Shown: in pieces, positions 2,684 to 31,515 of the stretch | How positions within the stretch are numbered: position 1 is the first letter of the stretch | Layout: the number at the start of each line of letters is the position of its first letter | NCBI RefSeq assembly: GCF_001457595.1 | Contig: NZ_LN831039.1 | Location: 5,730,001 to 5,762,000 of the forward strand | Source: Mycolicibacterium smegmatis | GTDB taxonomy: Bacteria > Actinomycetota > Actinomycetes > Mycobacteriales > Mycobacteriaceae | Direction of reading: 5' to 3' | Length of the DNA: 32,000 nucleotides | Made by a program: the position numbers and the translations under genes | Notes under the pieces: generated by a model | Told to the model about the DNA's origin: nothing | Database searches by the model: none | What the model saw: the letters and a program-made list of their open reading frames with translations, nothing else

Positions 2684-5059
2684 CTATCTCCACACGCGCC
2701 GTTCCTCGCCCAGCACGCGCCCCTGCACCCACCACAGCACCTCGATCAGCGCGGCCCCGGCCAGCCCGATACCGAGGGCCACCGATGTGACCTTCATATT
2801 GGTGGGATCCAGCATGAACAGTTCCTGCGCCAGCGGGATCGAGAAGATCAGGACGTACGCCAGCATCGAGCACGCGACCAGCAAAACGCGCCACCACTGA
2901 TACGGCCGGGCCACCACCGCGAGCACCCACAGCGACGACGCCAGCAACGTGATGAGCGCCGCGGTGGACGCCTGCGTCTGCTCGACGGGCGTGGCCTCAC
3001 GGCCCTGGTACGCCACGAGATAGGACACGAACGTCGCGGTGCCGACCACCAGGCCCGACGGCAGCGCCGCCGTCATCACGCGACGCACGAACCCCGTCTT
3101 GGCGCGCTCGTTGTTGGGCGCGAGCGACAGGATGAACGCCGGGATGCCGATGGTGAACCACGCCGCGATGGTGACGTGGATCGGCTGGAACGGGAACAAC
3201 AGCGGATCCGTGCCGAAGATCTCGGCCGACAGGCCGCCGATGCCGACCAGGATCGCCAGAAGCACCGAGTACACGGTCTTGGTGAGGAACAGGTTGGAGA
3301 CCCGCTCGATGTTGCCGATCACGCGCCTGCCCTCGCCCACCACGTACGGCAGCGTCGCGAACTTGTTGTCCAGCAGCACGATCTGCGCGACCGCGCGTGA
3401 CGCGGAACTACCCGAGCCCATCGCGACGCCGATGTCGGCGTCCTTGAGGGCCAGCACGTCGTTGACGCCGTCTCCGGTCATCGCGACCGTGTGCCCGCGC
3501 GACTGCAGGGCATGCACCATGGCACGCTTCTGATCGGGGCGCACCCGCCCGAATGTGGTGCACTCCTCCAGCGTCTCGGCGAGTTCCTCGGGCTGTTCGG
3601 GCAGACGCCTGGCGTCCATGGTCTCGCCGTGCAGGCCGAGTTTGCCGGCCACCGCGCCCACCGACACCGCGTTGTCACCCGAGATGACCTTGACCGAGAC
3701 GTGTTGCGACGCGAAGTAGTCGAGCGTGTCCCCCGCGTCGGGCCGGATCCGCTGCTCGAGCACCACCAGCGCTGCGGGGGTGACCACACCCGGCGCGTCG
3801 GGCGCATCGACACTGCGGTCCGACGATCCCAGCAACAGCACCCGCAGACCCTGTGCGCCGATGCGTTCGGCCTCCTCGGCCACCGGGGACGCGGGGTCGA
3901 GCAGCACGTCGGGCGCACCGATCACCCAGTTGCCGTGCTCGCCGTAGGACGTGCCGCTCCATTTGGTGGCCGACTTGAACGGCGCGGTCGCGGTCGCGGA
4001 CCACCCCGGCGGCGTCTGGTAGGCCTCGGCGATGGCGGCCATGCTCGCGTTGGGCCGTGCGTCGTCGGACGCCAACTGGGCCAGCACATCAGCGACGTGG
4101 CCCTCGGTGAGGGACTTGAGATCGCTGACACGCATGCCGTTCTCGGTGAGCGTGCCGGTCTTGTCCGCGCACACCACGTCGACGCGTGCGAGGCCCTCGA
4201 TCGCGGGCAACTCGTTGACCAGACACTGACGCCGCCCGAGCCGCACCACGCCGACCGCGAACGCGATCGACGTCATGAGCACCAGGCCCTCGGGCACCAT
4301 CGGCACCAGCGCCCCGACCATGCGCAGCACGGCCTCGCGCCATCCGGCGTCGGTGGTGAACAACTGCGTGTAGATGGTCAGCAGGCCCGCGGGCACCAGC
4401 AGGTAGGTGATGAACTGCAGGATCTTGTTGATGCCGTTGCGCAGTTCGGATTTCACCAGCGTGAACTTGGAGGCCTCCTCGGCGAGCTTGGCCGCGTACG
4501 CCTCGCGGCCCACCTTGGTGGCGCGGTACGCACCGCTGCCCGCGACGACGAAGCTGCCGGACATGACGGGATCGCCCGCGTCCTTGGCGATGGGATCGGC
4601 CTCGCCGGTGAGCAGCGACTCGTCGACCTCGAGGTTGGTCTCCTCGACCACCTCGCCGTCCACCACGATCTGATCGCCGGGACCCAACTCGATGATGTCG
4701 TCGAGCACGACCTCGCTGGGCAGCACGGCCCTGGTCCCCGACTGCCTGCGCACCGTGGGCTTGGCCTGCCCCACGATCGCGAGCTTGTCCAGCGTCTGCT
4801 TGGCGCGGATCTCCTGGATGATGCCGATCGCGCTGTTGGCGATGATGAGCAACCCGAACGCGCCGTTGATCACCGAACCGGTCGACAGCACGATGACGAA
4901 CAGCACACCGAGGATCGCGTTGATGCGCGTGAACACGTTGGCACGCACGATCTCGGACACCGTGCGCGCGGCGCGGGTCGGGACGTCGTTTGTCTTGCCC
5001 TCGGCGATCCGCTGTGCGACCTCGGCATCGGTGAGGCCGGCGGCAGCCATCGTCGTCAT
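2684..5059 (-). CDS. ctpE: P-type cation-transporting ATPase, CtpE-type (Ca2+/metal)
   Basis: 791 aa with the P-type motifs LTGEADP (TGE), the DKTGTLT phosphorylation site and [22 protein letters not shown] (hinge). It has multiple TM segments. Its size and synteny (beta-lactamase-like upstream, Rv0909/Rv0910-like downstream) match M. tuberculosis ctpE (Rv0908). Confidence 0.9.
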
Positions 5060-5072
5060 TTGGTGAAAACCG

Positions 5073-6680
5073 TCATCTGGTGAACGTCCCCGTCCCGTCC
5101 TCGTCGAAGTACTCCAGTGTCAGCTTGTCACCGGCGAAGGTCGCCTTGGAAATGGTGCCAGGCGGCGCGTTCTCGCTGACGAAACGGAACGTGAACACAT
5201 CGCCGTCCCAGTGCGTGAGCCGAGCCTTGAACTTCGGGCCGAGCGCGAGTTGCAGCGCACCGTCCTGCTCGGTGACCGTCGCCGGGCCCCAGTAGTCGTT
5301 GCGGTACACGCCCACATAGTCCGGAAGCGGTCTGGCCGGGGCCGGCACGGCCGGCGGTTTCTTGCCCACCAGTTCGCCCTCGGGACCGTCCATCGACGCG
5401 AACGCGTCGGCGTAGAGCTTGCGCCAGTCCTGTCTGACCTCGCCGAACTGCACGAGGTCGGCGAACTCCGCGGTGAGGGTCTCCGGGATGCCCGCGGGTG
5501 TCCCGTTGGTGAGCGCGACGATCCCGACGTCGGCCGACGGCAGGATCACGAAGTTGGTGGCCGCGCCGAGTTCGAAGGCGCCCGAGTGGCTCAGCTGCGT
5601 ACGCGCGGCCGACGTGGTGCCGACGTTGAAGCCGTAGCCGTAGAAGCCCGAACGCATCGCCGGCTGTGACGCACGGTCCGACACCACCTGCGGTGTGATC
5701 GCGGGCAACAGCGTGGACTCCTCGACGATGCGCTCGCCCTCGAACACGCCGTCGCCCAACACCATCGCGAGCCAGCGGGTCATGTCGTCGACCGACGCGC
5801 TCACACCCCCGGCGGGTGTCTGCGCGTCGGCGTTGCGCACATACTGCGGTTCGTAACGGCCGTCGACGCGGATGTGTCCCACGGCGCGGTTCTGCGTGGC
5901 CTCGTAGTCGGCGAAACGCGAACTGGTCGAGTTCATTCCGAGCGGGCGGTAGAGCACGTCGCGCGCGAGGTCCTCCCAGCTGCGGCCCGCGGCGGCAGCC
6001 ACGGCCTCGGCAGCCGCGGTGAGCCCGAAGTTGGTGTACGCGTAGGAGATCCGGAACGGATCCAGCGGCAGCGCCCGCAGGTGCTCGAGGATGTAGCGCC
6101 GGTCGTAGCCCAGGTCCTCCAGCTGATCGCCCGCGTGATCGGGCAGACCCGAGCGGTGCGCGAACAGGTCGCCGACCGTGACCATCCTGGTGGTCACCGG
6201 GTCCGAGAGCGCGAACCACGGCAGATGCTCGACCACCGGGGTGTCCCAGCCGATCGCGCCGGTGCCGACCTGATGTGCGACGACGGTGGCCGCGATGGGC
6301 TTGGACAGCGACGCGAGCTGGAACACCGTATCGGGGTCGACGCGGTTGGACTCGACATCGCCGTTGCGCACGTCACGTACACCGAATCCCTTGGCGTACA
6401 CGGTCTTCCCGCCGTGCACCACCGCCACGGCCATGCCGGGGATCCCCGAGCTGCGCATGAGATCCTCGGCGATGCCGTCGAGTTTGGCCACGGCGTTCTC
6501 GACCGCGTTCTCGGGCAGCGCCATCGCCGGGACGAGGGGTGGCGGCTCGTCGGCAAACGTCTGCGACGGTTGCGCGGAGCGCTGCGCGTCGGCGGTGTCG
6601 TCGCCGCCGGCGCAGCCGCTCACTGCGAGACCCACGACCAACGCCGAACCCACGGCTCTGGCGAACACCGACCTGCGCAT
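5073..6680 (-). CDS. serine hydrolase / class C beta-lactamase-family lipoprotein (Rv0907-like)
   Basis: The S-x-x-K motif is present (ASLSKP). I chose the start at the internal ATG (6680) because it gives a signal peptide with a lipobox ([23 protein letters not shown]). The ORF-track start at 6782 adds 34 Arg/Cys-rich residues. Confidence 0.85.
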
Positions 6681-6735
6681 GCTGTACACAACACGGCAGT
6701 ATGCCTGCAAACAGGCGCAAAGTCGGTGCAATGGG

Positions 6736-7851
6736 TTACAACTGCCACCACGGGTCGAGCACCGGCGAGCCGCCGTCGACACGCTGCCCTGGTTTGGGCA
6801 CCGCGACCTGCACCCCGGCCGGATCGGCCGCGGCGAGCAACCGTCGTACCGGCTCGGCCCACGGGTGCGGCGCCAACCGGAACGTCGCCCAGTGGATGGG
6901 CACCAGCAACCCGGACTCGGTCATGTCCAGGTGCGCCCGCACCGACTCCTCGGGGTTCATGTGGATGTCGGGCCACCCGGGGTTGTAGGCACCGACCGGC
7001 AGCAGCGTCAGGTCGAAAGGCCCGTGCTCGGAACCGATTTCGGAGAAGCTCTTGGTGTAGCCGGTATCGCCGCCGAAGAACGCGCGGTGGCCGGGCCCGA
7101 TCACCACCCACGACGCCCACAGCGTCGTGTTGCGCTGCAGGAACCGCCCGGAGAAGTGCCGCGCGGGTGTGCACACGATGGTCAGATCGCCGATGCGGTG
7201 ACTCTCGTTCCAGTCGAGTTCGACGATGCGGGCCTCCGGGATGCCCCACTTGCGCAGATGCGCACCGATACCCAGCGGCACGAGGAACGGCGCACGCTGC
7301 GTGCGTGCCAGGCCCCGGACGGTGTCGATGTCGAGATGGTCGTAGTGGTCGTGGCTGATCACGACCGCGTCGACCGCGGGCAGCGCCTCCAACGGCACCG
7401 GCGGCGCGTGCAGGCGGCGCGGACCGACCACGCGCGACGGCGAGCAGCGGTCACTCCAGATCGGATCGGTGAGCACGCGGTAGCCGTCGACCTCGATCAG
7501 GGCCGAGGAATGGCCGTACCAGGACACCGCGCACGGCTTGGCCTCGGCGGTCTCTGCCTCGGTGGGTTCGGCGAGCGGGATCTCCCCCGGCGGCCAGCTC
7601 GCGCCCTTCGAGCCGAACATCTCGGCGAACAGCCGGCGCCGCTCTTCGCGGTCCAGGTTGATACCGGGCGACGCGGGCTCGATGTTGACGAAGACCTTGC
7701 CGTCGAACTGCGGCGACCGCGTCGCCACCGGCTTGATGTCGCGGGGCTGGGCGCCCACCGACGCGTACGTACCGCGCAGCGCCCCCAAGAGCCAGCCGCC
7801 GGCCAGCAGGCCGGCCGAACGCGTCGTCAACCGCAGCGCCGCGCGCAACAC
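6736..7851 (-). CDS. MBL-fold metallo-hydrolase (Rv0906-like, NAPE-PLD-like)
   Basis: It carries the metallo-beta-lactamase H-x-H-x-D-H motif (ISHDHYDHLD) and an N-terminal hydrophobic segment. The GTG start at 7851 lies 1 nt after the echA6 stop. Confidence 0.85.
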   Translation of the reverse strand: MLRAALRLTTRSAGLLAGGWLLGALRGTYASVGAQPRDIKPVATRSPQFDGKVFVNIEPASPGINLDREERRRLFAEMFGSKGASWPPGEIPLAEPTEAETAEAKPCAVSWYGHSSALIEVDGYRVLTDPIWSDRCSPSRVVGPRRLHAPPVPLEALPAVDAVVISHDHYDHLDIDTVRGLARTQRAPFLVPLGIGAHLRKWGIPEARIVELDWNESHRIGDLTIVCTPARHFSGRFLQRNTTLWASWVVIGPGHRAFFGGDTGYTKSFSEIGSEHGPFDLTLLPVGAYNPGWPDIHMNPEESVRAHLDMTESGLLVPIHWATFRLAPHPWAEPVRRLLAAADPAGVQVAVPKPGQRVDGGSPVLDPWWQL

Positions 7852-7852
7852 G

Positions 7853-8584
7853 TCAGGCCCCGGTGAACCTGGGCGGACGCTTCTCGATGCGCGCCACCTG
7901 GGCCTCGATCACGTCAGGTGACTTCCAGGCCCGGTCGAACAACTCCTTGTGCGCGGGCCACGGCTCTTCGTAGGCGCCGTCGTCATTGAGGACACGCTTG
8001 GCGTGCTGCAGTGCCAGCGGTGCGAACCCCGCGATCTCGGCCGCCCACTTCTGCGCGTCGGCCAGGGTGCCGATGCGGTTGGCCATGCCCGTCTGCAGCG
8101 CGGTCTCGGCGTCGAGCTTCTCCGCGGCCAACAGCATGCCCCGCGCGCGGCCGTAACCCACCAGCGACGTCAACCGGCGGATGCTCCAGTTGTCCAGCGC
8201 CAGCCCGTATTTCGCGACCGGAAACTGGAAGTACGCCTCCGGCACCACGACCCGCAGATCGCAGATCATCGCGAGGATCACGCCCGCGCCGATCGCGGGC
8301 CCGTTGATCGCGCCGATCACCGGCACCGGGGCCTTGTCGATCGCGAGGTTCAGCGCCGTCGCCTTGTCGGGCAGTTCGGCGGCGAACGCGTCACCGGACA
8401 GGTCGGCGCCCGCGCTGAACACCGACCCCTGGCCGGTGAGCACGATCGCGCGGATGTCCTCGGACGCGGCGTTCTCGACCGCCTCACGCAGGCTGTCGAC
8501 GAGTTCGCAGTTCAGCGCGTTGCGCCGCTCGGGACGTTGGAGCTCCAGGGTCAGGACATTGCCGTCTCGGGTGACACCAATCAT
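7853..8584 (-). CDS. echA6: enoyl-CoA hydratase/isomerase (crotonase) family, EchA6-like
   Basis: 243 aa with crotonase-fold motifs ([29 protein letters not shown]). Its position between accD3 and the MBL hydrolase matches Rv0905. Confidence 0.85.
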
Positions 8585-8610: not shown

Positions 8611-10737
8611 TCAGCTCTCGGCGGTGCTCAGCTGCCAGTCGCCGGGCAGGCCCGTGACCTTTGCCACCGTCCCCTCCGCCTCGACCGCCACCGTGGCCGA
8701 GCCGAGCCGCAGATCGGTCAACGCCACGCGACCCCAGGCGGCGGGCAGGTGCGGGCGCACGGTGAGCTTGCGGTGCGGGACGTCGGGCTCGAGACCGAGG
8801 AAGGCGCGCACCAGCAGCAGCGGCGCCGCGCTGGCCCATGCCTGCGGCGAACACGACGTCGGGTACGGCACCGGCGAGGCGAACTGCGACCGGTGGAACC
8901 CGCAGAACAGCTCGGGCAGCCGGCCGCCGAACGCGTCGGCCGCGTCGAGCAGGCCGAGCGCGAGCCGTTCGGCGAGTTCGACGGCACCCGGCACGTGGCG
9001 GTAGCGCAGCAGCCCCGCGACCGCGATGGCCGTGTCGTGCGGCCACACCGAGCCGTTGTGATAGCTCATCGGGTTGTAGGCGCCCATGTCGGCGGCCAGC
9101 GTGCGCAGCCCGAAGCCCGAGTCCATCTCGGAGGTGCCCAGCTTCTCGACGATCCGCGCGGCGTGTTCGTCGGTCGCGATACCCGCCCACAGGCAGTGCC
9201 CGACATTGCTGGTCAACGAGTCGACCGGGCGCTTGTCGCCGTCCAGGGCGAGCGCGTAGTAGCCGCGGTCGGGCAACCAGAACTTCTCGGCGAAGCGCTT
9301 CTTCAGCGTCGCGGCCCGGTCGCGCATGCGCTTGGCGGTCGCGGGTTCGCCGAACGCGTCGGCCAACTCCGCCCGGGCCCGCAGTGCCGCGTACTGGTAG
9401 GCCTGCACCTCGCACAGCGCGATCGGCGCGTCGGCGCGGTGGCCCGCCGCGTCGGTGATCGCGTCGAAGCTGTCCTTCCAGCCCTGGTTGAGCAGGCCGC
9501 GGTCGGTCGCGCGCTTGTACTCGATGAACCCGTCGTCGTCGCGGTCGCCGTAGCGGGCCGCCCAACTCAACGCGGCGTCGGCCGCGGGCAGCAGTGCCCG
9601 TACCGCGCCCTCGTCGGCGCCCCACCGCCAGCATTCGGCCAGCAGCATCACGAACAATGGCGTCGAATCGGCCGACCCGTAGTAGACCGAGCCGCCCAGC
9701 ACGTCGGTGCTCGCCGGGCCGCGGCGGATCTCGTGCATGATCCGCCCCGGCTGCTCCTCGGTCAGCGGATCCACGCGGCGCCCCTGCGAGTCGGCCAGGC
9801 GCTGCAGCGTGCCCACCGAGAGCCCGACGTCCAGCGGCAGCGACATCCACGCCGTCAACAGACTGTCGCGGCCGAACAGCGTCATGAACCACGGTGCGCC
9901 CGCCGCGACGTACGGACGCTCGTCGGTCTCGTCGCGGATCAGCAGCGCACCCAGATCGCTCTCGCTGCGCTGCAGTGTCGCGGCCAGCGCCCGCAGATCG
10001 GTCTCGACCGTGGTGGTGGTGCCCCGCCAGGCCTCGATCTTGCGGGCCGGTGCGCTGGCCTCCAGTTCCTCACCCGTGCGGAACCGGGTCTTCACGCTCT
10101 GGTTGGCCCATGTCGGCTCCGCGACCACCTCGGCCTGCCACGTGCCGCGCGGCGGCACCACGACGCGCCACCGGAACACCCCCGGCGTGACCACCGGCGA
10201 ACCGGACGCCGTGATCTTCACGCCGCGAACGCGATTCGACCGGTCGTTGAGCACCAGCTCGTTGTCGACGAGCGATATCTCGGCGCCCCCGATGGGCGCG
10301 CGGCCCTCCTTGACGGCGAACAGGTCCGCGAAATCGGCGTCGACGAGCAGCTCTAGAGACACCACGGTGGGCTCGTCGGCCAGGTTGTACAGCGATATGG
10401 TCTCGCGCAACCCGTCGGCGATCAGGCGGTCACGCACCAGCAGCAGTGTGCTGTCGGCAACCCCGGCACGCGGTGTGCGGCGCATGATGAACTGCGCGGC
10501 AAAGGCTTCCGGGGTCTGCACGGTCAGCGACTCGGGTTCACCGCCGTCGACGTGCAACTGCCACCGCGACAGCACGCGCGCATCGCGGAAGAACAGGCCG
10601 TGCGACCGGCCCGCCAGCACGTCGCCGTGGCGGTCGGACAGGCAGAAGGTGGCACCTTCCACGAGTGTCACTGTGCCACCGCCGAATCCGATGCTGGCGG
10701 GCTCGCCACCATTGAGAATGGTCGGCGTCACGGTCAT
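8611..10737 (-). CDS. amylo-alpha-1,6-glucosidase / glycogen-debranching-enzyme-like glycoside hydrolase
   Basis: The N-terminal GDE_N-type region (TLVEGATFCLSDRHGDV...GLFFRDARVLSRW) is followed by an (alpha/alpha)6 GDE_C-like region (PWFMTLFGRDSL, YHNGSVWPHD). The start is taken at ATG 10737, which overlaps the upstream stop as ATGA. The ORF-track extension to 11067 is Arg/Gly-rich and overlaps the GT4 gene. Confidence 0.85.
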   Translation of the reverse strand: MTVTPTILNGGEPASIGFGGGTVTLVEGATFCLSDRHGDVLAGRSHGLFFRDARVLSRWQLHVDGGEPESLTVQTPEAFAAQFIMRRTPRAGVADSTLLLVRDRLIADGLRETISLYNLADEPTVVSLELLVDADFADLFAVKEGRAPIGGAEISLVDNELVLNDRSNRVRGVKITASGSPVVTPGVFRWRVVVPPRGTWQAEVVAEPTWANQSVKTRFRTGEELEASAPARKIEAWRGTTTTVETDLRALAATLQRSESDLGALLIRDETDERPYVAAGAPWFMTLFGRDSLLTAWMSLPLDVGLSVGTLQRLADSQGRRVDPLTEEQPGRIMHEIRRGPASTDVLGGSVYYGSADSTPLFVMLLAECWRWGADEGAVRALLPAADAALSWAARYGDRDDDGFIEYKRATDRGLLNQGWKDSFDAITDAAGHRADAPIALCEVQAYQYAALRARAELADAFGEPATAKRMRDRAATLKKRFAEKFWLPDRGYYALALDGDKRPVDSLTSNVGHCLWAGIATDEHAARIVEKLGTSEMDSGFGLRTLAADMGAYNPMSYHNGSVWPHDTAIAVAGLLRYRHVPGAVELAERLALGLLDAADAFGGRLPELFCGFHRSQFASPVPYPTSCSPQAWASAAPLLLVRAFLGLEPDVPHRKLTVRPHLPAAWGRVALTDLRLGSATVAVEAEGTVAKVTGLPGDWQLSTAES

Positions 10738-11885
10738 GCGCTCGCCCGCTCGGCCACACCGGGTGGCTCGGTCAGCACCTCGCGCAACGTCATCCGCGTG
10801 CGCTGACGCAGCACGTTGCGGTAGATCTGCTCGTATCCCGCGCCGAACCGGCCGACCCCGAAGTGCGCCGCGACGTGCCTGCGGCACGCGGCGGGGTCGA
10901 GATGCGTGGCCTTTTCCATCGCCGCCGGAAGTTCCTCGGGCACATCGCAGATCACGCCCGTGACACCGTCGACGATCACCTCGGGCACCGCGCCGCCACG
11001 CAGCGCGACCACCGGTGTACCGCAGGCCATGGCCTCGATCATCACCATGCCGAACGGCTCTTCCCACTGGATCGGGAAGACCAGGCAGCGGGCCTCGGCG
11101 AGCAGCTTGCGCTTGGCCTGCGCGTCGGCCATGCCGAACACGTGATCGCTGTCGGTGAGCAGCGGTTTCACCTGCTCGTCGAAGTACGCGATCTCGGGCG
11201 GTTCACTGCACTTGCCTGCCAGGACCAGCGGCATGCCTGCGGCGTGCCCGGCCTCCAGCGCGAGGTGCGCACCCTTGTACGGCGCGTACCGGCCGAGGAA
11301 CAGCGCATAGTCCTTCTTCACGGTGTTGAACGGCCAGTCGTCGATACGCAGCGCATTGTGCACGCGGCCAACCCAATTCAGGTCGGGAGCGAGCTCACGC
11401 TGGCGGTCGCTGATCGCGATCAGGCCGATGTCGTCGCCGAGTTCGCGGTAATAGGGGTACAGGTCCTCGTCGATCGGGCCGTGCACCGTGACCACAGTGG
11501 GCAACCCGAGCTTGCGGTAGAACGGAGCGTTGAGCGGGCCTGCGAACGTGTGATCGTGCACGATGTCGACGCCTTCGGTGGCGGCGATGCGCTCGATGGC
11601 CTTACGCACCTTGAGCGCGTGCATGATCTCCGGGTACGGCTGGCCCAGACGATCGGGAAGTGTGCGCTCCCACAGGGGTTGGAAGCGCGCAGCAGTCCCC
11701 GGTGCTCCTGCACCCAACACCGTCACGTGGTGGCCGCGGGCGGTCAGCGTATCGGCGAGATCCGCGACGACGGCTTCGGTGCCGCCGTAGCCCTTGGGGG
11801 GAATGTCGAAGTAGGGCGGCGCGACGAGCACGATCCGCAGCGGATCGTCCACATCGGCCGGGGCGAGGATATCGTTGCCGCTCAC
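10734..11885 (-). CDS. GT4-family (group 1) glycosyltransferase
   Basis: It has the GT-B/GT4 N-terminal motif (RIVLVAPPYFDIPPKGYGGTE) and the C-terminal E-x7-E region (WEEPFGMVMIEAMACGTPVV). The GTG start has a strong SD, AGGAGG (11894-11899, minus strand), 8 nt upstream. Confidence 0.9.
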   Translation of the reverse strand: MSGNDILAPADVDDPLRIVLVAPPYFDIPPKGYGGTEAVVADLADTLTARGHHVTVLGAGAPGTAARFQPLWERTLPDRLGQPYPEIMHALKVRKAIERIAATEGVDIVHDHTFAGPLNAPFYRKLGLPTVVTVHGPIDEDLYPYYRELGDDIGLIAISDRQRELAPDLNWVGRVHNALRIDDWPFNTVKKDYALFLGRYAPYKGAHLALEAGHAAGMPLVLAGKCSEPPEIAYFDEQVKPLLTDSDHVFGMADAQAKRKLLAEARCLVFPIQWEEPFGMVMIEAMACGTPVVALRGGAVPEVIVDGVTGVICDVPEELPAAMEKATHLDPAACRRHVAAHFGVGRFGAGYEQIYRNVLRQRTRMTLREVLTEPPGVAERASA

Positions 11886-11922
11886 GCTGTCAACCTCCTA
11901 CTCACTCAATTGCGCGGCCGCG

Positions 11923-11949
11923 TTAGCACTCTCATCCGACGAGTGCCAA
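11923..11949. promoter_or_regulatory. CIRCE-like inverted repeat (candidate HrcA operator)
   Basis: TTAGCACTC-tcatccgac-GAGTGCCAA matches the CIRCE consensus TTAGCACTC-N9-GAGTGCTAA at 17 of 18 arm positions with the exact 9-nt spacer. It lies in the 128-bp divergent region between the GT4 gene and accD3. Confidence 0.65.
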
Positions 11950-12013
11950 TTATGGTCAAGCCAACCCACTTTCGGCAACCGGAACTCGTCGACGCGTCGG
12001 CTAACCTTCGAAT

Positions 12014-13483
12014 GTGAGTCGGATCGGCGCTCTGGCGCTTCGGGATGCAGTGCTGGACGAGGGCTCGTTCCGCAGCTGGGACACGGCGCCCCTGGACGTC
12101 GGCGCCGACGACGAGTACCGCCGTGAACTGGCCGAGGCCTCGGCCAAGACCGGGCTGGACGAATCAGTGCTGACCGGCGAGGGCACGGTGTTCGGCAGGC
12201 GCGTCGCGGTGGTGGCGTGTGAGTTCGACTTCCTCGCCGGATCGATCGGCGTGGCCGCGGCCGAGCGCATCACCGCGGCCGTGCAGCGCGCGACCGCCGA
12301 ACGCCTGCCACTGCTGGCGTCGCCGAGCTCGGGCGGCACGCGCATGCAGGAGGGCACGGTCGCGTTCCTGCAGATGGTCAAGATCGCCGCGGCCGTCGAG
12401 CTGCACAAGCAGGCCCATCTCCCCTACCTCGTGTACCTGCGTCATCCCACGACCGGCGGGGTGTTCGCGTCGTGGGGATCGCTGGGCCACGTCACCGCGG
12501 CCGAACCGGGCGCGCTGATCGGCTTCCTCGGCCCGCGCGTGTACGAGCACCTCTACGGCGAACCGTTCCCGTCTGGCGTGCAGACCGCCGAGAACCTGCA
12601 CGCCCACGGCGTCATCGACGGTGTGGTGCCGCTTGCGCTGCTGCGCGAGACGCTCGACCGGACCCTGCGCGTGGTGGCCGACCCGCCGGGACCTGCGCCT
12701 GCCGTCATCGAGACCGAGGACCTGCCGGACGTGCCGGCCTGGGACTCGGTGATCGCGTCGCGTCGGCCCGACCGCCCCGGCGTCGGCTTCCTGCTGCGCC
12801 ACGGCGCGACCGATCAGGTGCTGCTGTCGGGCACCGAACGGGGCGAGGCCGCGACGACGCTGCTCGCGCTCGCCCGGTTCGGCGGTCAGCCCGCCGTGGT
12901 GCTGGGCCAGCGTCGTATCGTCGGCGGCCTGGTGGGCCCCGGCGCACTGCGCGAGGCCCGCCGCGGCATGGCGTTGGCCGCCGGACTGCAGCTACCGCTC
13001 GTGCTGGTGATCGACACCGCCGGGCCCGCGCTGTCGACCGAGGCCGAGCAGGGCGGGCTGGCCGGTGAGATCGCGCGCTGCCTGGCCGAACTCGTCACGC
13101 TCGACACCCCGACCGTGTCGGTGCTCATGGGTCAGGGCAGCGGCGGGCCGGCACTGGCGATGGTTCCCGCCGACCGCGTGCTCGCGGCGTCCAACGGCTG
13201 GCTCGCGCCACTGCCGCCCGAAGGTGCGAGCGCCATCGTCTACCGCGACACCGAGCATGCCCCCGAACTCGCTGCCGCACAGGGTGTCCGGGCCGTCGAC
13301 CTGCTACGCCACGGCATCGTCGACGTCGTCGTCGCCGAGAAACCCGATGCCGCCGACGAGCCACGCGCCTTCACGGCCCGGTTGTCCACCGCGATCGCCG
13401 CCGAATTGCACAACCTGCGTGCCGTTCCCGACGACGAGCGTCTGCAGACGCGGTTGCAGCGGTACCGCCGGATCGGGTTGTAG
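12014..13483 (+). CDS. accD3: acetyl/propionyl-CoA carboxylase carboxyltransferase beta subunit, AccD3-like
   Basis: 489 aa with the carboxyltransferase core (CEFDFLAGSIGVAAAERI, SSGGTRMQEGTVAFLQM, HPTTGGVFASWGSLG). Length and synteny match Rv0904c. The start codon is GTG. Confidence 0.85.
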   Translation: MSRIGALALRDAVLDEGSFRSWDTAPLDVGADDEYRRELAEASAKTGLDESVLTGEGTVFGRRVAVVACEFDFLAGSIGVAAAERITAAVQRATAERLPLLASPSSGGTRMQEGTVAFLQMVKIAAAVELHKQAHLPYLVYLRHPTTGGVFASWGSLGHVTAAEPGALIGFLGPRVYEHLYGEPFPSGVQTAENLHAHGVIDGVVPLALLRETLDRTLRVVADPPGPAPAVIETEDLPDVPAWDSVIASRRPDRPGVGFLLRHGATDQVLLSGTERGEAATTLLALARFGGQPAVVLGQRRIVGGLVGPGALREARRGMALAAGLQLPLVLVIDTAGPALSTEAEQGGLAGEIARCLAELVTLDTPTVSVLMGQGSGGPALAMVPADRVLAASNGWLAPLPPEGASAIVYRDTEHAPELAAAQGVRAVDLLRHGIVDVVVAEKPDAADEPRAFTARLSTAIAAELHNLRAVPDDERLQTRLQRYRRIGL

Positions 13484-17386: not shown

Positions 17387-17400
17387 GTCAAATGAAAACC

Positions 17401-17568
17401 GCGCTTCGTTAGGTGAGGCTCCTACACGAACACAGGCCACTGATCCGACGACGTCGAGAGACGCCCAGGGTTAGGACAGATCTTCCCGGCCTAAGGGATG
17501 ATCCGAAGTGGCTTCCCACCTCAAGGTGGGACACGTCGTGCAGTGCCAAAGCTCTGATGAGGAAGTGC
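17401..17568 (+). promoter_or_regulatory. M-box (ykoK leader) Mg2+-sensing riboswitch aptamer
   Basis: It contains the near-invariant M-box strings CUUCGUUAGGUGAGGCUCCU (5' side), AGAGACGC, UAAGG and CAGUGCCAAAGCUCUGAUGA (3' side). These are closed by P1 GCGCUUC/GAAGUGC. The length of about 168 nt is comparable to the Bacillus subtilis mgtE M-box. Confidence 0.88.
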
Positions 17569-17680
17569 TCGCGCCACTCGGCGCGTCCGGCCATGTGCCC
17601 GACTTCCTCTTCAGCGCGCATCTGACGGTTGCGTGCAGAACAGCTGCGCCCCGTGCGCCCGGTAGCGAGGAGGTGACGAC

Positions 17681-18104: not shown

Positions 18105-18114
18105 GCGTCTGACG

Positions 18115-18153
18115 TGCCACCGGCTGCGCCGGGGGGCGGCGCAGCCGGTGGCA
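18115..18153 (+). terminator. perfect 16-17 bp GC-rich hairpin after the mgtA relic
   Basis: TGCCACCGGCTGCGCC-ggggggc-GGCGCAGCCGGTGGCA begins 11 nt after the relic stop codon (TGA 18102-18104). It has no T-tract. Its 3' arm abuts the ATG at 18153. Confidence 0.5.
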
Positions 18154-18857
18154 TGCTGGGATCTGTGGAACCTCTGTGGCACTTCGCAGGGAACTTCTGG
18201 TGGTTGATCTTCCCGCTCGGAGGAATGATCGGCGGCGGTATCAGGGCTGTGGCCGCCGCCAATGAACGGCGCGCCGAACGACGCCTGGAGCGCTACCGCA
18301 TCAAGCAGCAGACCAAGGTCGAGATGGCGCGGGCGGCCGAGGCCGTGAGAGCCGCCGACGCCGGCTACGAACGTGAACTCACGAAGGTGCTGCAACGCCA
18401 CGACCACACCAACGCCCGCTGGCTCGACTACGAGATCGACGTCGCGAAGCTCCTGGACTTCCCGTTGATGACGGACATGCGCGATCCGCTGACCATCGCG
18501 TTCCACAAGGCTCGCGGCCGCGCCGATCTGCTGCGGCCCGACAACCCGGCCGACATCCTGGGTGACCGGCCCGCGCAACTCGAATACCGCGACGCCGTGC
18601 ACGAATACGTCACGGCGTTCGACATCGCCGAGACCGAGGCGATCCGCAGGCGCCGCAGCGACTTCTCGGCCGAGGCGCAGGAACGCCTGGCCCGTGCCCA
18701 ACAGCTGCTGCGCCTCGCGTCCGACGAGGGCGCCACACCGCAGGAACGCCAGAGCGCCTACACGCGGGCGCAGAGAGAACTCGACGGGCTCATCGTGCTG
18801 CCTGCGACCACCCGCGCGAGCATCGAACGCAAGATCCTCGGCGAACTCGAGGCCTGA
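18153..18857 (+). CDS. hypothetical membrane-anchored protein (one N-terminal TM, long charged helical C-terminal part)
   Basis: The ORF is open over 18114..18857. A TM-like segment (FWWLIFPLGGMIGGGIRAVAAA) is followed by Arg/Glu-rich helices, and codon usage is typical of the window. The start is uncertain (GTG 18114 inside the hairpin, ATG 18153 or GTG 18165). I recognise no family. Confidence 0.65.
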   Translation: MLGSVEPLWHFAGNFWWLIFPLGGMIGGGIRAVAAANERRAERRLERYRIKQQTKVEMARAAEAVRAADAGYERELTKVLQRHDHTNARWLDYEIDVAKLLDFPLMTDMRDPLTIAFHKARGRADLLRPDNPADILGDRPAQLEYRDAVHEYVTAFDIAETEAIRRRRSDFSAEAQERLARAQQLLRLASDEGATPQERQSAYTRAQRELDGLIVLPATTRASIERKILGELEA

Positions 18858-29357: not shown

Positions 29358-30314
29358 TCAGCGCCCCCGACGCGCGATCAGCGGCGCAACTTCGTCGGGG
29401 CCGGACAGCGCCGATGGGATGTGCAACTCGCGAATCGTGTCCTCGGCGAGGCGTGCGAACTCACGGGTGGCGTTGGACAGCGGGCGAGCGCGATGCTGCG
29501 CGAGGGCGATCACGTCGTACAACGGCTCGGCGAACGGTGCGGTGTGCAGGGCGGCCGGGAACGCATCGCTGTCGATCACGGCGCCGCTGGCGATGGTGTC
29601 GCCCACCTTGCCCGCGGCCAGTTTCAGCGCGGCCTCGACGTGTTCGATCTCGATCATCGGCTCCAAGCGCAGACCGGCCAGTTGTGCACGCTCCGCCAGT
29701 TGCCTGCGGGTCGGATCCTTCCACCCGTAATGGGCGTCGTAGAGCACCAGGTCGGCCTCGGAGAACTGTTGTATGGTAACGGGTTCCGCGGCGCGCGCCG
29801 GATCCGCCGTCACGTAGAAGACCTCGTCGCGCAGCAGGGGGCGAACCGTCAGATCCTCGTCGTCGATCGGTAGGATGAGCATCCCCGCTTCGATCTCGCC
29901 GGCCTGTATCGCCGCGGCGGTCTCGGCGGAGTTCTGCCCGACCAACCGCACCCGTACCGCGGGATAGCGCATGTGAAAGGTCTGGACCAGGCTGGACAGC
30001 AGGTAGTAGTCCGCGTTGCGGGGCATACCGAAGGTTGCGGTTCCGCCACCGAGCGAGCCGAGTGAGCGGACCGCGTGCACGCCGCCGTCGGCCGCGTGCA
30101 CGGCCTGCTCCGCATACGGCAACAACTCCTGACCCGCGGCGGTGAGCGCGAGCCTGCGGCTGCCGCGGACGAACAACTGGGCGTCGAGCTCTTCTTCGAG
30201 ACGACGCACCAGTTCGGAGACCGACGCCTGGGCGACGGCCAGCGCATCGGCGGCAGCGGTGAACGAGCCAAGGCGGTGCGCTTCGACGAAAGCCCGAAGT
30301 TGATTGAGCGTCAT
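29358..30314 (-). CDS. LysR-family transcriptional regulator
   Basis: The LysR HTH is MTLNQLRAFVEAHRLGSFTAAADALAVAQASVSELVRRLEEELD. The start is taken at ATG 30314. The remainder of ORF 29358..31487 is antisense to the epoxide hydrolase gene. Confidence 0.85.
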   Translation of the reverse strand: MTLNQLRAFVEAHRLGSFTAAADALAVAQASVSELVRRLEEELDAQLFVRGSRRLALTAAGQELLPYAEQAVHAADGGVHAVRSLGSLGGGTATFGMPRNADYYLLSSLVQTFHMRYPAVRVRLVGQNSAETAAAIQAGEIEAGMLILPIDDEDLTVRPLLRDEVFYVTADPARAAEPVTIQQFSEADLVLYDAHYGWKDPTRRQLAERAQLAGLRLEPMIEIEHVEAALKLAAGKVGDTIASGAVIDSDAFPAALHTAPFAEPLYDVIALAQHRARPLSNATREFARLAEDTIRELHIPSALSGPDEVAPLIARRGR

Positions 30315-30332
30315 ACCGTGCAGTATTGACCC

Positions 30333-31445
30333 ATGACCGACTCGTTGATCCGCCCGTTCCGCATCGCCGTACCCGACGCCGATCTCGACGACCTCAAGAG
30401 CCGCCTGTCCCGCACCCGCTGGCCCGAGCCGGAAACCGTCGACGACTGGGGTCAGGGCATACCGCTGGACTACACCCGCGAGCTCGCCGAGTACTGGGCG
30501 AACGGCTACGACTGGCGCGCCCGCGAACAGGCGCTGAACCGCTTCGACCACTACGTCACCGAACTCGACGGGCTCGACATCCACTTCATCCACCAGCGCT
30601 GCGCACGCCCCGACGCGTTTCCCCTGCTGCTCACCCACGGCTGGCCCGGATCGATCGTCGAATTCCACAAGGTGATCGAACCGCTCACCGAGGCCGGGTT
30701 CGACGTGGTCTGCCCGTCGCTGCCCGGCTACGGCTTCTCCGGCAAGCCCACGACGACCGGGTGGGGCATCGGCAGGATCGCCCAGGCGTGGGACACCCTC
30801 ATGACCCGGCTGGGCTATGACCGCTACGGCGCGCAGGGCGGCGACTGGGGCGCGGCCGTCACGACGCAGATCGGCCGCAACGTGGGCAATTGTGTTGGCA
30901 TTCATGTGAACATGCCGATCGCGCGGCCACCCGCCGAAGGCGTCGGTGAGATGACCGAGGAGGTGCGACAGGCGCTGGAACGGATGCAGTACTACCGCAA
31001 ATGGGATTCCGGCTACATGAAGCAGCAGTCGACGCGGCCGCAGACCGTGGGCTACGGCCTGGTCGACTCGCCCGTGGGGCAGCTGGCTTGGATCGTCGAG
31101 AAGTTCTGGTCGTGGATGGACTGCGACGGCCACCCCGAGAACGTGCTGAGCCGCGACGAACTGCTCGACAACGTGATGCTGTACTGGGTCACCGCGTCGG
31201 CGGCGTCCTCGGCGCGGCTGTACTGGGAGAGTTACGACACCTTCGCAGGTGGCGACTTCGTGACGCTGCCCACCGGCGTGGCGTCGTTCCCCAAGGAGAT
31301 CCTGCGCGCGCCGCGGGCCTGGTGCGAAAAGGCGTACAACGTCACGCATTTCACGATGATGCCGCGCGGTGGGCACTTCGCGGCGTTCGAGCAGCCCGAG
31401 CTTTTCGTCGAGGATGTCGCGAAATTCTTCGACAGCGTGCGCTGA
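30333..31445 (+). CDS. epoxide hydrolase (microsomal-type, EHN N-terminal domain + alpha/beta fold)
   Basis: It has the EHN domain (IRPFRIAVPDADLDDLKSRLSRTRWPE), the oxyanion motif HGWPGS, the Asp nucleophile elbow GGDWGA and a C-terminal GGHFAAFEQP. Confidence 0.9.
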   Translation: MTDSLIRPFRIAVPDADLDDLKSRLSRTRWPEPETVDDWGQGIPLDYTRELAEYWANGYDWRAREQALNRFDHYVTELDGLDIHFIHQRCARPDAFPLLLTHGWPGSIVEFHKVIEPLTEAGFDVVCPSLPGYGFSGKPTTTGWGIGRIAQAWDTLMTRLGYDRYGAQGGDWGAAVTTQIGRNVGNCVGIHVNMPIARPPAEGVGEMTEEVRQALERMQYYRKWDSGYMKQQSTRPQTVGYGLVDSPVGQLAWIVEKFWSWMDCDGHPENVLSRDELLDNVMLYWVTASAASSARLYWESYDTFAGGDFVTLPTGVASFPKEILRAPRAWCEKAYNVTHFTMMPRGGHFAAFEQPELFVEDVAKFFDSVR

Positions 31446-31457
31446 GCTTTTCTTTCG

Positions 31458-31515
31458 CGAGCAGACGTAAAACTGCCTATTTTGCAAGGAAATTGGGCAG
31501 TTTTGCGTCTGCTCG
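31458..31515. terminator. long hairpin (20-bp stem with one G-T pair, 18-nt loop) between convergent genes
   Basis: CGAGCAGACGTAAAACTGCC-tattttgcaaggaaattg-GGCAGTTTTGCGTCTGCTCG is flanked by partly complementary TTTTCTTTCG / GCAGAAGAAAA. It lies between the epoxide hydrolase stop (31445) and the ABC gene stop (31527). Confidence 0.6.

Follow-up and report, generated by a model that had tools for sequence, protein, structure and literature searches.

We identified a CIRCE inverted repeat, a predicted HrcA operator, at positions 11923-11949 (minus strand) of the window, by which we mean the whole 32-kb stretch of M. smegmatis DNA that was analysed and that corresponds to MSMEG_5636-5642. This element is a real CIRCE and very probably a functional HrcA operator. 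It is highly likely that it acts on the promoter of a bicistronic operon, MSMEG_5641-MSMEG_5640, which encodes a GT4 glycosyltransferase and a GH176 glycoside hydrolase, and we infer that HrcA binds the site and that the operon is induced by heat. The gene for the repressor lies outside the window and is MSMEG_4505, which PMC12709188 (Suppl. Table 5) lists as 'heat-inducible transcription repressor'. Our search of the literature found no prior report of MSMEG_5641-5640 as an HrcA target.

The sequence at 11923-11949 reads TTAGCACTCTCATCCGACGAGTGCCAA. Its arms, TTAGCACTC-N9-GAGTGCCAA, compare with TTAGCACTC-N9-GAGTGCTAA in the canonical CIRCE, so that 17 of the 18 arm positions match the consensus and the spacer is exactly 9 nt. 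Read in the orientation of the GT4 gene, the element is TTGGCACTC-gtcggatga-GAGTGCTAA. It is the sole CIRCE match in the window, even when up to three mismatches are allowed, and none of 100 dinucleotide-preserving shuffles of the window contained any match, giving a chance expectation of about zero. The original prediction had described a near-consensus element with one arm mismatch and a 9-nt spacer, very unlikely to arise by chance in 32 kb, and both statements agree with these results.

In a comparison of orthologous regions, 37 related loci belonging to four actinobacterial orders have a CIRCE with 0-2 mismatches immediately upstream of their GT4 orthologue, also where accD3 is lacking. 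Among 80 GT4 loci, 34 carry the element with at most two mismatches at 30-250 nt upstream of the GT4 gene, and further positive loci were found in M. avium subsp. paratuberculosis, M. shinjukuense and M. phlei. Elsewhere in the 80 loci, which amount to about 0.74 Mb, there are no other CIRCE-like sites with up to three mismatches. The source genome is not one of the loci retrieved, of which the best match shows 80% identity. The CIRCE-positive loci belong to Mycobacteriaceae, Pseudonocardiales (10/10 loci), Micromonospora, Pilimelia, Actinopolymorphaceae and one Nocardia subclade, and they occupy deep branches of the GT4 tree. Across 38 loci the two arms hold 1.83 and 1.90 bits of information per position, compared with 0.55 bits for the spacer and 0.2-0.3 bits for the flanks. 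Conserved arms around a spacer that is not conserved are the footprint expected of a dimeric DNA-binding protein.

The element is absent from most Nocardia loci and a few others, which retain the GT4 and GH176 genes, and HrcA control is therefore dispensable for the cassette. Upstream of the cassette in these CIRCE-less loci we found no HspR operator (HAIR, CTTGAGT-N7-ACTCAAG) that might act as a substitute. The cases in which the element has been lost or has decayed while the genes were kept, in many Nocardia loci and a few metagenome-assembled genomes (MAGs), could be taken to mean that the match in M. smegmatis is itself a non-functional relic or a chance palindrome. We give this possibility almost no weight. 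The chance expectation is about zero, and four orders share the position, the spacing and the arm sequence although spacer and flanks diverge freely, a pattern which on comparative grounds effectively refutes both a relic and a chance match. The loci also illustrate how an operator can travel through genomes as one unit with its genes, and how it decays in some lineages.

The layout of the intergenic region would place the operator at the start of the GT4 transcript. The element lies within a 128-bp gap between the GTG start codon of the GT4 gene at 11885 (minus strand) and the GTG start codon of the divergent carboxyltransferase gene accD3 at 12014; these positions, together with a Shine-Dalgarno sequence at 11894-11899, had been given in the original prediction and are correct. 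On the minus strand a predicted -10 hexamer, CATAAT, is found at 11949-11954. It is of the ANNNT type, in line with the published M. smegmatis SigA -10 motif (ANNNT/TANNNT), and the CIRCE begins with its final T. A (C/T)ATAAT hexamer is kept in the same register in mycobacterial loci and in the CIRCE-positive Nocardia loci. The promoter scan also gave a -35-like hexamer, TTGCCG, at 11973-11978 (minus strand) with a spacer of 18 to CATAAT, and TTGnnn occurs at a comparable distance in many orthologous loci; this is weak evidence for a -35 box, as a strong consensus at -35 is lacking in mycobacterial SigA promoters. Downstream of the repeat stands the Shine-Dalgarno sequence AGGAGG (cctcct on the plus strand; 11894-11899, minus strand) of the GT4 gene. 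Across orthologous loci a GGAGG followed by a start codon is conserved 25-40 nt after the CIRCE, and the whole order of (C/T)ATAAT, CIRCE, Shine-Dalgarno sequence and start codon is repeated. Since the -10 box overlaps the first CIRCE base, the predicted transcription start of MSMEG_5641 (about 11940-11944, minus strand) falls inside the repeat, and bound HrcA would cover it.

The same overlap bears on whether the repeat acts mainly as RNA, that is, as a stem-loop in the 5' UTR through which the stability or the translation of the mRNA is controlled. Action at the RNA level has been reported for the CIRCE of Rhodobacter capsulatus and, in part, for that of B. subtilis, and CIRCE hairpins in 5' UTRs have been discussed as mRNA stability elements. 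Several variant arms in our comparison (TTGGCACTC, TTAGCACTT) also retain G-U pairing with the opposite arm. However, the fold of the predicted 5' UTR is no more stable than those of shuffled sequences (z = +1.15), and it is the sequence identity of the arms that is conserved (1.8-1.9 bits) and not mere pairing, as recognition by a protein predicts. Moreover, with a conserved -10 box that reaches into the repeat by one base, transcription is expected to begin within the left arm, and the mRNA would be without the full hairpin. A search of the intergenic region against Rfam returned no known RNA family. We regard a role mainly in RNA as very improbable, and prefer the reading of the repeat as an operator recognised by HrcA on DNA.

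Judged by the comparison of loci, the CIRCE is an operator that would serve the minus-strand pair of MSMEG_5641 and MSMEG_5640. The genes flanking the CIRCE-GT4-GH176 unit vary among loci (accD3, MFS, sulfatase, SDR, epimerase and others), and the element therefore belongs to the GT4-GH176 cassette. GH176 is paired with GT4 in about 74 of the 80 loci. The minus-strand array from echA6 to ctpE and beyond was considered as a single CIRCE operon and rejected, as no genes other than GT4 and GH176 keep company with the element across loci. HrcA control reaching down to ctpE and the SRPBCC gene, as suggested originally, is thus not upheld; in the one expression dataset found, MSMEG_5639-5636 also change in the opposite direction, in an RNA-seq comparison in which MSMEG_5641 and MSMEG_5640 are not among the listed genes. 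Of the roles first suggested for the element, a sugar-modifying one is that of the controlled pair, and the statement that no chaperone gene is nearby holds for the Pfam annotation of all large ORFs in the window.

The divergent gene accD3 (MSMEG_5642) was likewise considered as the regulated gene and rejected, as the CIRCE accompanies GT4-GH176 in loci without an accD3 neighbour. Repression of accD3 in M. smegmatis, in addition to or instead of the GT4 operon, could come about in two ways. HrcA might occlude a plus-strand promoter, for which a -10-like TATGGT adjoins the element at 11951-11956 and the repeat would contain the matching -35, or it might act as a roadblock to a long plus-strand transcript. 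For the latter, the TSS entries of Martini et al. 2019 include a plus-strand start, antisense to MSMEG_5641, 482 nt upstream of MSMEG_5642, and a transcript from there must therefore cross the palindromic site. The original prediction had noted -10-like hexamers on both strands, and both are present, but TATGGT is for the most part just the conserved minus-strand -10 in reverse complement, and three loci that all have accD3 adjacent (L002, L006 and L083) do not keep its final T. MSMEG_5642 is also absent from the differential-expression entries listed where MSMEG_5641 and MSMEG_5640 rise 6-fold. We consider control of accD3 improbable. Of the two locations proposed for the element, the transcription start or 5' mRNA end of the GT4 gene agrees with the promoter layout and its conservation, and a role over the -35 region of accD3 is not supported.

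Expression data point in the same direction as the preferred assignment to the GT4-GH176 pair. In an RNA-seq study of M. smegmatis in stationary phase (PMC12709188 Suppl. Table 5), knock-down of CarD raised MSMEG_5641 6.6-fold and MSMEG_5640 6.1-fold, together with groEL1 (3.7-fold), groEL2 (3.0-fold), groES (2.9-fold) and hrcA (1.7-fold), while the HspR-type targets clpB and hsp20 went down, as did groEL3. The two genes thus co-vary with the HrcA regulon in this one dataset, a circumstantial observation because very many genes are differentially expressed upon CarD depletion. We found no genome-wide heat-shock transcriptome of M. smegmatis in the literature.

The first gene of the operon, MSMEG_5641 (10734-11885, minus strand; 383 aa), has the N- and C-terminal GT4 domains of a GT-B fold according to Pfam, and the protein encoded in the window is 100% identical to that of M. 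smegmatis. Among characterised enzymes it is most similar to TeGSS (tll1591), a published cyanobacterial glucosylsucrose synthase, with 38% identity over 352 residues (E=3e-63) and 199 bits, compared with at most 76 bits to any other solved GT4. The catalytic and UDP-binding residues Tyr18, Arg179 and Lys184 of TeGSS are conserved, and in the comparison of the two proteins KGYGG aligns with PAYGG and FLGRYAPYKG with FLGRLSPEKG. By its sequence, MSMEG_5641 is a relative of an alpha-1,2-glucosyltransferase, and its product may be an alpha-1,2-glucoside. The cyanobacterial enzymes, TeGSS and alr1000, are connected with stress. The alpha-1,2-glucosylsucrose products of the cyanobacterial family are published to rise 4-20-fold under heat or salt stress, and in Fischerella PCC 9605 the gene sits among HSP70 and HSP20 genes.

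There are also clear differences. TeGSS Trp10, which stacks on the fructose of sucrose, is a Tyr in MSMEG_5641. The cyanobacterial genes adjoin a gene for sucrose-phosphate synthase (SPS), with sucrose as the primer, and an SPS-like neighbour is present in the cyanobacterial loci L084 and L086, whereas the actinobacterial GT4 loci, including that of MSMEG_5641, have none. Because of the 38% identity, the change of Trp10 to Tyr and the lack of an adjacent SPS gene, the acceptor and even the linkage are only putative. No conserved third gene that would reveal the acceptor stands beside GT4-GH176 in the loci compared. Unlike the cyanobacterial enzymes, MSMEG_5641 has a GH176 partner and predicted CIRCE control: in the three cyanobacterial loci examined no GH176 gene is found next to the glucosylsucrose synthase gene, and the only CIRCE-like site upstream of it is a weak one with four mismatches in Leptolyngbya.

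The second gene, MSMEG_5640 (8611-10737, minus strand; 708 aa), contains GDE_N_bis, GDE_C and MGH1-like domains. Its ATG overlaps the stop codon of the GT4 gene (ATGA), and GT4 and GH176 are therefore translationally coupled. The protein had been called a GDE-like hydrolase, which is right as to hydrolase and can be made more precise: a full-length match to TgAMY (PDB 7VMA; E=1.9e-80, residues 27-663), the founding GH176 member, places it in family GH176. It shares with TgAMY and the A8F5 enzyme an N-terminal beta-sandwich and an (alpha/alpha)6 barrel, and its signature blocks are conserved with TgAMY. The GH176 enzyme of Arthrobacter humicola A8F5 has been published as a specific alpha-1,2-glucosidase, and such a specificity would fit the linkage that a TeGSS-like GT4 forms. 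In its description the A8F5 enzyme is a kojibiose hydrolase of a rare, catabolic kind whose sequence cluster is small, in contrast to MSMEG_5640, which is known here from its sequence, belongs to a widespread actinobacterial group and stands in an operon with a synthase. To express a synthase along with a hydrolase that cleaves the bond it makes would seem futile, except where the hydrolase trims or recycles the product.

It may also be that the operator is real but that the two enzymes act on storage alpha-glucan, which they would remodel, and not in making a protective solute. The GT4 protein would then be glycogen-synthase-like, GH176 would act as a debranching enzyme (amylo-alpha-1,6-glucosidase), and heat shock would mobilise or restructure glycogen. 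TgAMY has been reported as a starch or maltodextrin debranching enzyme, annotation pipelines label MSMEG_5640 'amylo-alpha-1,6-glucosidase', and there are Pfam and NCBIfam matches to glycogen debranching enzyme and to glgA_Coryne, which are weak and well below the cut-offs. On the other hand, alpha-1,6 activity of TgAMY was never directly shown and its active site keeps all kojibiose-binding residues. The GT4 protein scores 199 bits against TeGSS and just 83 bits against glgA_Coryne (cut-off 302). Mycobacteria already possess dedicated glycogen enzymes, which also counts against this role. We regard glycogen remodelling as rather unlikely.

Our best overall explanation, which we consider likely, is an HrcA operator on the GT4-GH176 operon that works as follows. 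As long as the temperature is normal, GroES/GroEL would keep HrcA (MSMEG_4505) active, and HrcA would bind the inverted repeat, which starts with the last base of the -10 box and includes the predicted transcription start, and would block RNA polymerase there. Once GroEL is titrated by heat or by unfolded proteins, or HrcA is degraded, the SigA-type promoter would fire and the two translationally coupled enzymes would be produced alongside the chaperonins. The GT4 enzyme, by homology, would add alpha-1,2-linked glucose from UDP-glucose to an abundant cytoplasmic sugar; trehalose as this acceptor is a guess, and sucrose is unlikely. The product may be a short kojioligosaccharide-type compatible solute that serves as a chemical chaperone, and GH176 would trim or recycle it. 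The enzyme specificities and the protective role of the product are suggested by homology, and that the cassette makes an alpha-1,2-glucoside thermoprotectant is in our view plausible, with somewhat less than an even chance.

The original prediction took CIRCE/HrcA control to be classically confined to groES/groEL (and to dnaK operons in Firmicutes). This needs correction: the published HrcA regulon of M. tuberculosis includes one non-groE gene, Rv0991c, and a CIRCE has been published upstream of hrcA itself. HrcA of BCG has also been published to shift CIRCE-containing fragments of groES and groEL2 in EMSA. The operator described here resembles the mycobacterial groES-groEL1 and groEL2 operators in its 9-N9-9 consensus, in its predicted location at or just downstream of a SigA-type promoter and in the presence of hrcA in the genome. 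Unlike them, it is a single operator that would overlap -10 and +1, and the genes under its predicted control are not chaperones, as in the typical CIRCE regulon (groE/dnaK operons), but carbohydrate-active enzymes. In M. tuberculosis the long leader of groES contains CIRCEs in tandem. Rv0991c (ruc) is a precedent for direct repression by a mycobacterial HrcA of a gene other than groES or groEL. Later work showed that its product is a protein chaperone under redox regulation, and Rv0991c therefore still fits chaperone expression, whereas the MSMEG_5641-5640 operon is enzymatic. M. tuberculosis presumably lacks the GT4-GH176 cassette, with accD3 and echA6 adjacent there.

HrcA/CIRCE is usually viewed as governing a small chaperonin regulon, of which the documented mycobacterial members are groES, groEL1, groEL2, Rv0991c and hrcA. 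If enzymes with so deeply conserved an operator belong to it as well, HrcA control would extend into carbohydrate metabolism, and there would be a concrete and testable role for the uncharacterised TeGSS-like GT4 and GH176 enzymes. Both occur widely, in Mycobacterium (M. avium subsp. paratuberculosis and relatives of M. tuberculosis among them) as well as in Nocardia, Amycolatopsis and other genera. M. smegmatis is genetically tractable, which makes the hypothesis easy to test. On our best reading, the operon is an ancient non-chaperone arm of the HrcA regulon, one that may make an alpha-1,2-glucoside "chemical chaperone". More tentatively, we suggest that in at least four actinomycete orders an ancient and portable cassette of CIRCE-promoter, GT4 and GH176 may put the synthesis and turnover of an alpha-1,2-glucoside under HrcA, the thermosensor repressor of GroES/GroEL, in a regulon that would pair chaperones with a small-molecule thermoprotectant. 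The finding suggests that many actinobacteria, when they turn on their protein chaperones, begin to make a protective sugar as well, and it points to a possible stress metabolite new to mycobacteria. If true, this thermoprotectant, possibly based on trehalose, would be for actinobacteria what glucosylsucrose is for cyanobacteria.

The sequence TTAGCACTCTCATCCGACGAGTGCCAA at 11923-11949 matches the canonical CIRCE element, the HrcA operator (TTAGCACTC-N9-GAGTGCTAA), with one mismatch and a spacer of exactly 9 nt. No second match with up to 3 mismatches exists in the 32-kb window, and dinucleotide-preserving shuffles gave none (0/100). The element lies in the 128-bp gap separating two divergent genes, with the minus-strand GT4 glycosyltransferase gene on the left (GTG 11885, SD 11894-11899) and a plus-strand AccD-type carboxyltransferase gene on the right (GTG 12014). 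A Mycolicibacterium smegmatis protein matches the GT4 protein with 100% identity, and the length and domain boundaries of the GT4 protein fit the published description of MSMEG_5641. The carboxyltransferase MSMEG_5642 is known as AccD3, the region covers MSMEG_5636 (ctpE) to MSMEG_5642 (accD3) and further, and hrcA is MSMEG_4505. By Pfam annotation the other large ORFs of the window encode acyl-CoA ligases, a P-type ATPase, beta-lactamase-fold proteins, ABC transporter parts, a LysR regulator and others, with no chaperone among them. The original prediction of a near-consensus CIRCE in this divergent gap, away from any chaperone gene, therefore holds. Elsewhere in the window we observed a full-length M-box (Mg2+) riboswitch aptamer at 17398-17571 (plus strand; Rfam RF00380, 136.7 bits, E=6e-31), and Pfam matches none of the plus-strand ORFs downstream of it (for example 18114-18857). 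In the LysR ORF at 29358-31487 (minus strand, 709 aa at longest) the HTH and substrate domains span residues 394-683 only; its translation probably begins well past the earliest in-frame start codon.

For a comparison across species-representative genomes we used 80 loci with GT4 relatives of 62-80% identity. A CIRCE with 0-2 mismatches is found in 34 of them, each time ahead of the GT4 start by 30-250 nt, and these loci (about 0.74 Mb) hold no further CIRCE-like site with up to 3 mismatches. Exact-protein look-ups added three genomes with the element at the same place, namely M. avium subsp. paratuberculosis, M. shinjukuense and M. phlei. The site is thus conserved at orthologous loci, which excludes a chance match or a relic. 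A GDE_N_bis/GDE_C hydrolase gene lies next to GT4 in about 74 of the 80 loci. accD3 adjoins the pair in a subset of mycobacteria only, and other loci are flanked by an MFS transporter with a two-component system, a sulfatase, an SDR, an aldose epimerase, a SpoIIE phosphatase and others. The operator is therefore part of a cassette that is complete in itself and consists of the CIRCE-promoter, GT4 and the hydrolase.

In a neighbour-joining GT4 tree, deep branches to either side of the root carry the CIRCE-positive loci. They comprise Micromonospora and a Pilimelia, all ten Pseudonocardiales loci (Amycolatopsis, Lentzea, Prauserella, Pseudonocardia), the main mycobacterial clade, an Actinopolymorphaceae MAG and one Nocardia subclade. 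Two series show the site decaying: one runs from L037 through L046 (4 mismatches, about 3895-3921) to its sister L062, where the site is lost, and the other from L004 to L007 and L008 (about 3938-3965), which keep the left arm and spacer but miss one base of the right arm (GA-AGCTAA). The simplest reading of this distribution would be an ancestral operator that was lost repeatedly, chiefly in Nocardia. We found no HspR (HAIR) operator gained by the CIRCE-less loci. As natural loss-of-operator variants, L007, L008, L046 and L062 could serve in comparisons. Two genomes, of M. shimoidei (L015 and L025) and Nocardia transvalensis (L035 and L038), contain two GT4 copies each. In both, CIRCE and GH176 (the hydrolase family) accompany one copy, whereas CIRCE is missing from the other; L038 is without GH176 as well. 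This suggests duplication or transfer followed by diverged regulation.

A promoter scan places TTGCCG-18-CATAAT on the minus strand, and the final T of the CATAAT -10 is base 1 of CIRCE in gene orientation. SigA promoters of M. smegmatis are marked chiefly by ANNNT/TANNNT at -13 to -6, so together with this overlap the transcription start is predicted inside the repeat, at about 11940-11944. From its sequence, the arrangement looks like the classical repressor-over-+1 layout. The site alignment shows a (C/T)ATAAT -10 in the same register across mycobacteria and CIRCE-positive Nocardia, GGAGG and a start codon 25-40 nt past CIRCE, and a spacer that varies freely between loci. Per position, the arms carry 1.83 and 1.90 bits of information, against 0.55 for the spacer and 0.2-0.3 for the flanks, a pattern that reads as the footprint of a dimeric DNA-binding protein. 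It is unlikely that the element acts mainly at the RNA level, since transcription should begin within the left arm and the 5' UTR shows no unusual structure. CIRCE might also control accD3 in M. smegmatis, though with low probability. An entry in Table S7 of Martini et al. 2019 gives a plus-strand start with an alternative-sigma motif (#5) at NC_008596 position 5729610, 482 nt upstream of MSMEG_5642, and a transcript from there must read through the palindrome, but accD3 control has no comparative support. Assuming the accD3 start at 12014, this listed start maps to about 11532, inside the GT4 gene, and its transcript is antisense to MSMEG_5641 and crosses CIRCE.

The GT4 stop overlaps the hydrolase ATG (ATGA at 10737-10734), so the translation of the two genes is coupled. 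Only 26 nt separate the hydrolase stop from echA6, and echA6 and the genes past it are not conserved with the cassette in the 80 loci. In M. tuberculosis, accD3 (Rv0904c) adjoins echA6 (Rv0905) directly, and the species is not known to have the cassette. In published RNA-seq of exponential-phase CarD knock-down, the rows listed show MSMEG_5639 to MSMEG_5636 (echA6, MBL-fold, beta-lactamase-like/PBP4, ctpE; minus strand, 7853-8584 and 2684-7851) falling together, with log2FC of -0.9, -1.2, -1.05 and -0.5; MSMEG_5641 and MSMEG_5640, the hydrolase gene, are not among these rows. This suggests that MSMEG_5639 to MSMEG_5636 form their own transcription unit beginning 26 nt after the GH176 stop. Both this expression pattern and the lack of conservation set them apart from the cassette and speak against the earlier view that CIRCE heads the whole array to ctpE and beyond.

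A literature search found no heat-shock or hrcA-mutant transcriptome of M. smegmatis. The informative dataset was the stationary-phase CarD knock-down in PMC12709188 (Supplementary Table 5), where MSMEG_5641 (log2FC +2.72, p = 2.5e-57) and MSMEG_5640 (+2.61) rise with the canonical HrcA targets groEL1 (+1.88), groEL2 (+1.57), groES (+1.52) and hrcA (+0.74), whereas the HspR-type targets clpB (-0.86) and hsp20 (-1.39) fall. The third groEL paralogue, groEL3, is at -1.12, and MSMEG_5642 is not among the rows listed. Both genes of the pair thus move with the HrcA set rather than with the HspR set, which is circumstantial but specific evidence.

The closest solved relative of GT4 is TeGSS (tll1591), the glucosylsucrose synthase of Thermosynechococcus (199 bits; 38% identity over 352 residues, E=3e-63), with other GT4 structures at 76 bits or less. 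In cyanobacteria, salt and heat stress raise the products of TeGSS 4-20-fold. MSMEG_5641 keeps Tyr18, Arg179 and Lys184, which hold the UDP diphosphate and acceptor O2 in TeGSS, but has Tyr at the position of Trp10, the residue that stacks against the fructose moiety of sucrose. MSMEG_5640 matches the GH176 founder TgAMY (PDB 7VMA) over about 640 residues (E=1.9e-80) with conserved signature blocks. According to a 2026 preprint, a bacterial GH176 enzyme acts strictly as an alpha-1,2-glucosidase, with kojibiose, kojitriose and selaginose as substrates, and TgAMY, whose reported alpha-1,6 activity was never directly shown, has all kojibiose-binding residues. With a TeGSS-like GT4 beside a relative of this glucosidase, the two are probably maker and breaker of the same rare bond; a role in glycogen remodelling instead of a protective solute seems rather improbable to us.

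The GSS gene adjoins a sucrose-phosphate-synthase-like gene in Thermosynechococcus and Leptolyngbya. In Fischerella sp. PCC 9605 (L085 3111-6786) it lies among heat-shock genes: HSP70 and HSP20 are located upstream on the other strand, and a further HSP20 follows directly downstream. This genomic context hints independently at a tie between the GT4 family and heat stress. None of the three cyanobacterial loci places GH176 beside the GSS gene or shows a convincing CIRCE. Leptolyngbya sp. NIES-2104 has a weak CIRCE-like site (GTAGCACTC-N9-GAGTGGTGT, 4 mismatches, L086 4829-4855) 172 nt upstream of its GSS homologue, which may be due to chance (about 0.04 expected per 11-kb locus by estimate). 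The actinobacterial loci have no SPS-like neighbour and no conserved third gene, and therefore the GT4 acceptor must be a common metabolite. Trehalose is the dominant actinobacterial disaccharide, and would be our guess.

We propose that HrcA, kept active by GroES/GroEL, would occupy the repeat over the -10 and +1 and block initiation. Heat or unfolded protein would inactivate HrcA, which the Pup-proteasome system may also remove in mycobacteria. The SigA promoter would then fire, and the coupled GT4 and GH176 would be made with the chaperonins and, judging by homology, build and trim an alpha-1,2-glucoside serving as chemical chaperone or compatible solute. Motif, geometry, conservation, homology and co-variation are what the analysis shows, whereas HrcA binding, heat induction, the chemistry and the role in the cell are inferred. 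As an operator, the site is a textbook CIRCE of an already known kind; the target is new. Mycobacterial HrcA targets in the searched literature are groES, groEL1, groEL2, Rv0991c and hrcA, and none of it links the GT4-GH176 cassette to HrcA or CIRCE. The association of operator and cassette is old, wide and specific, and can be tested directly in M. smegmatis. It also connects the chaperonin regulon with what may be a small-molecule protectant.
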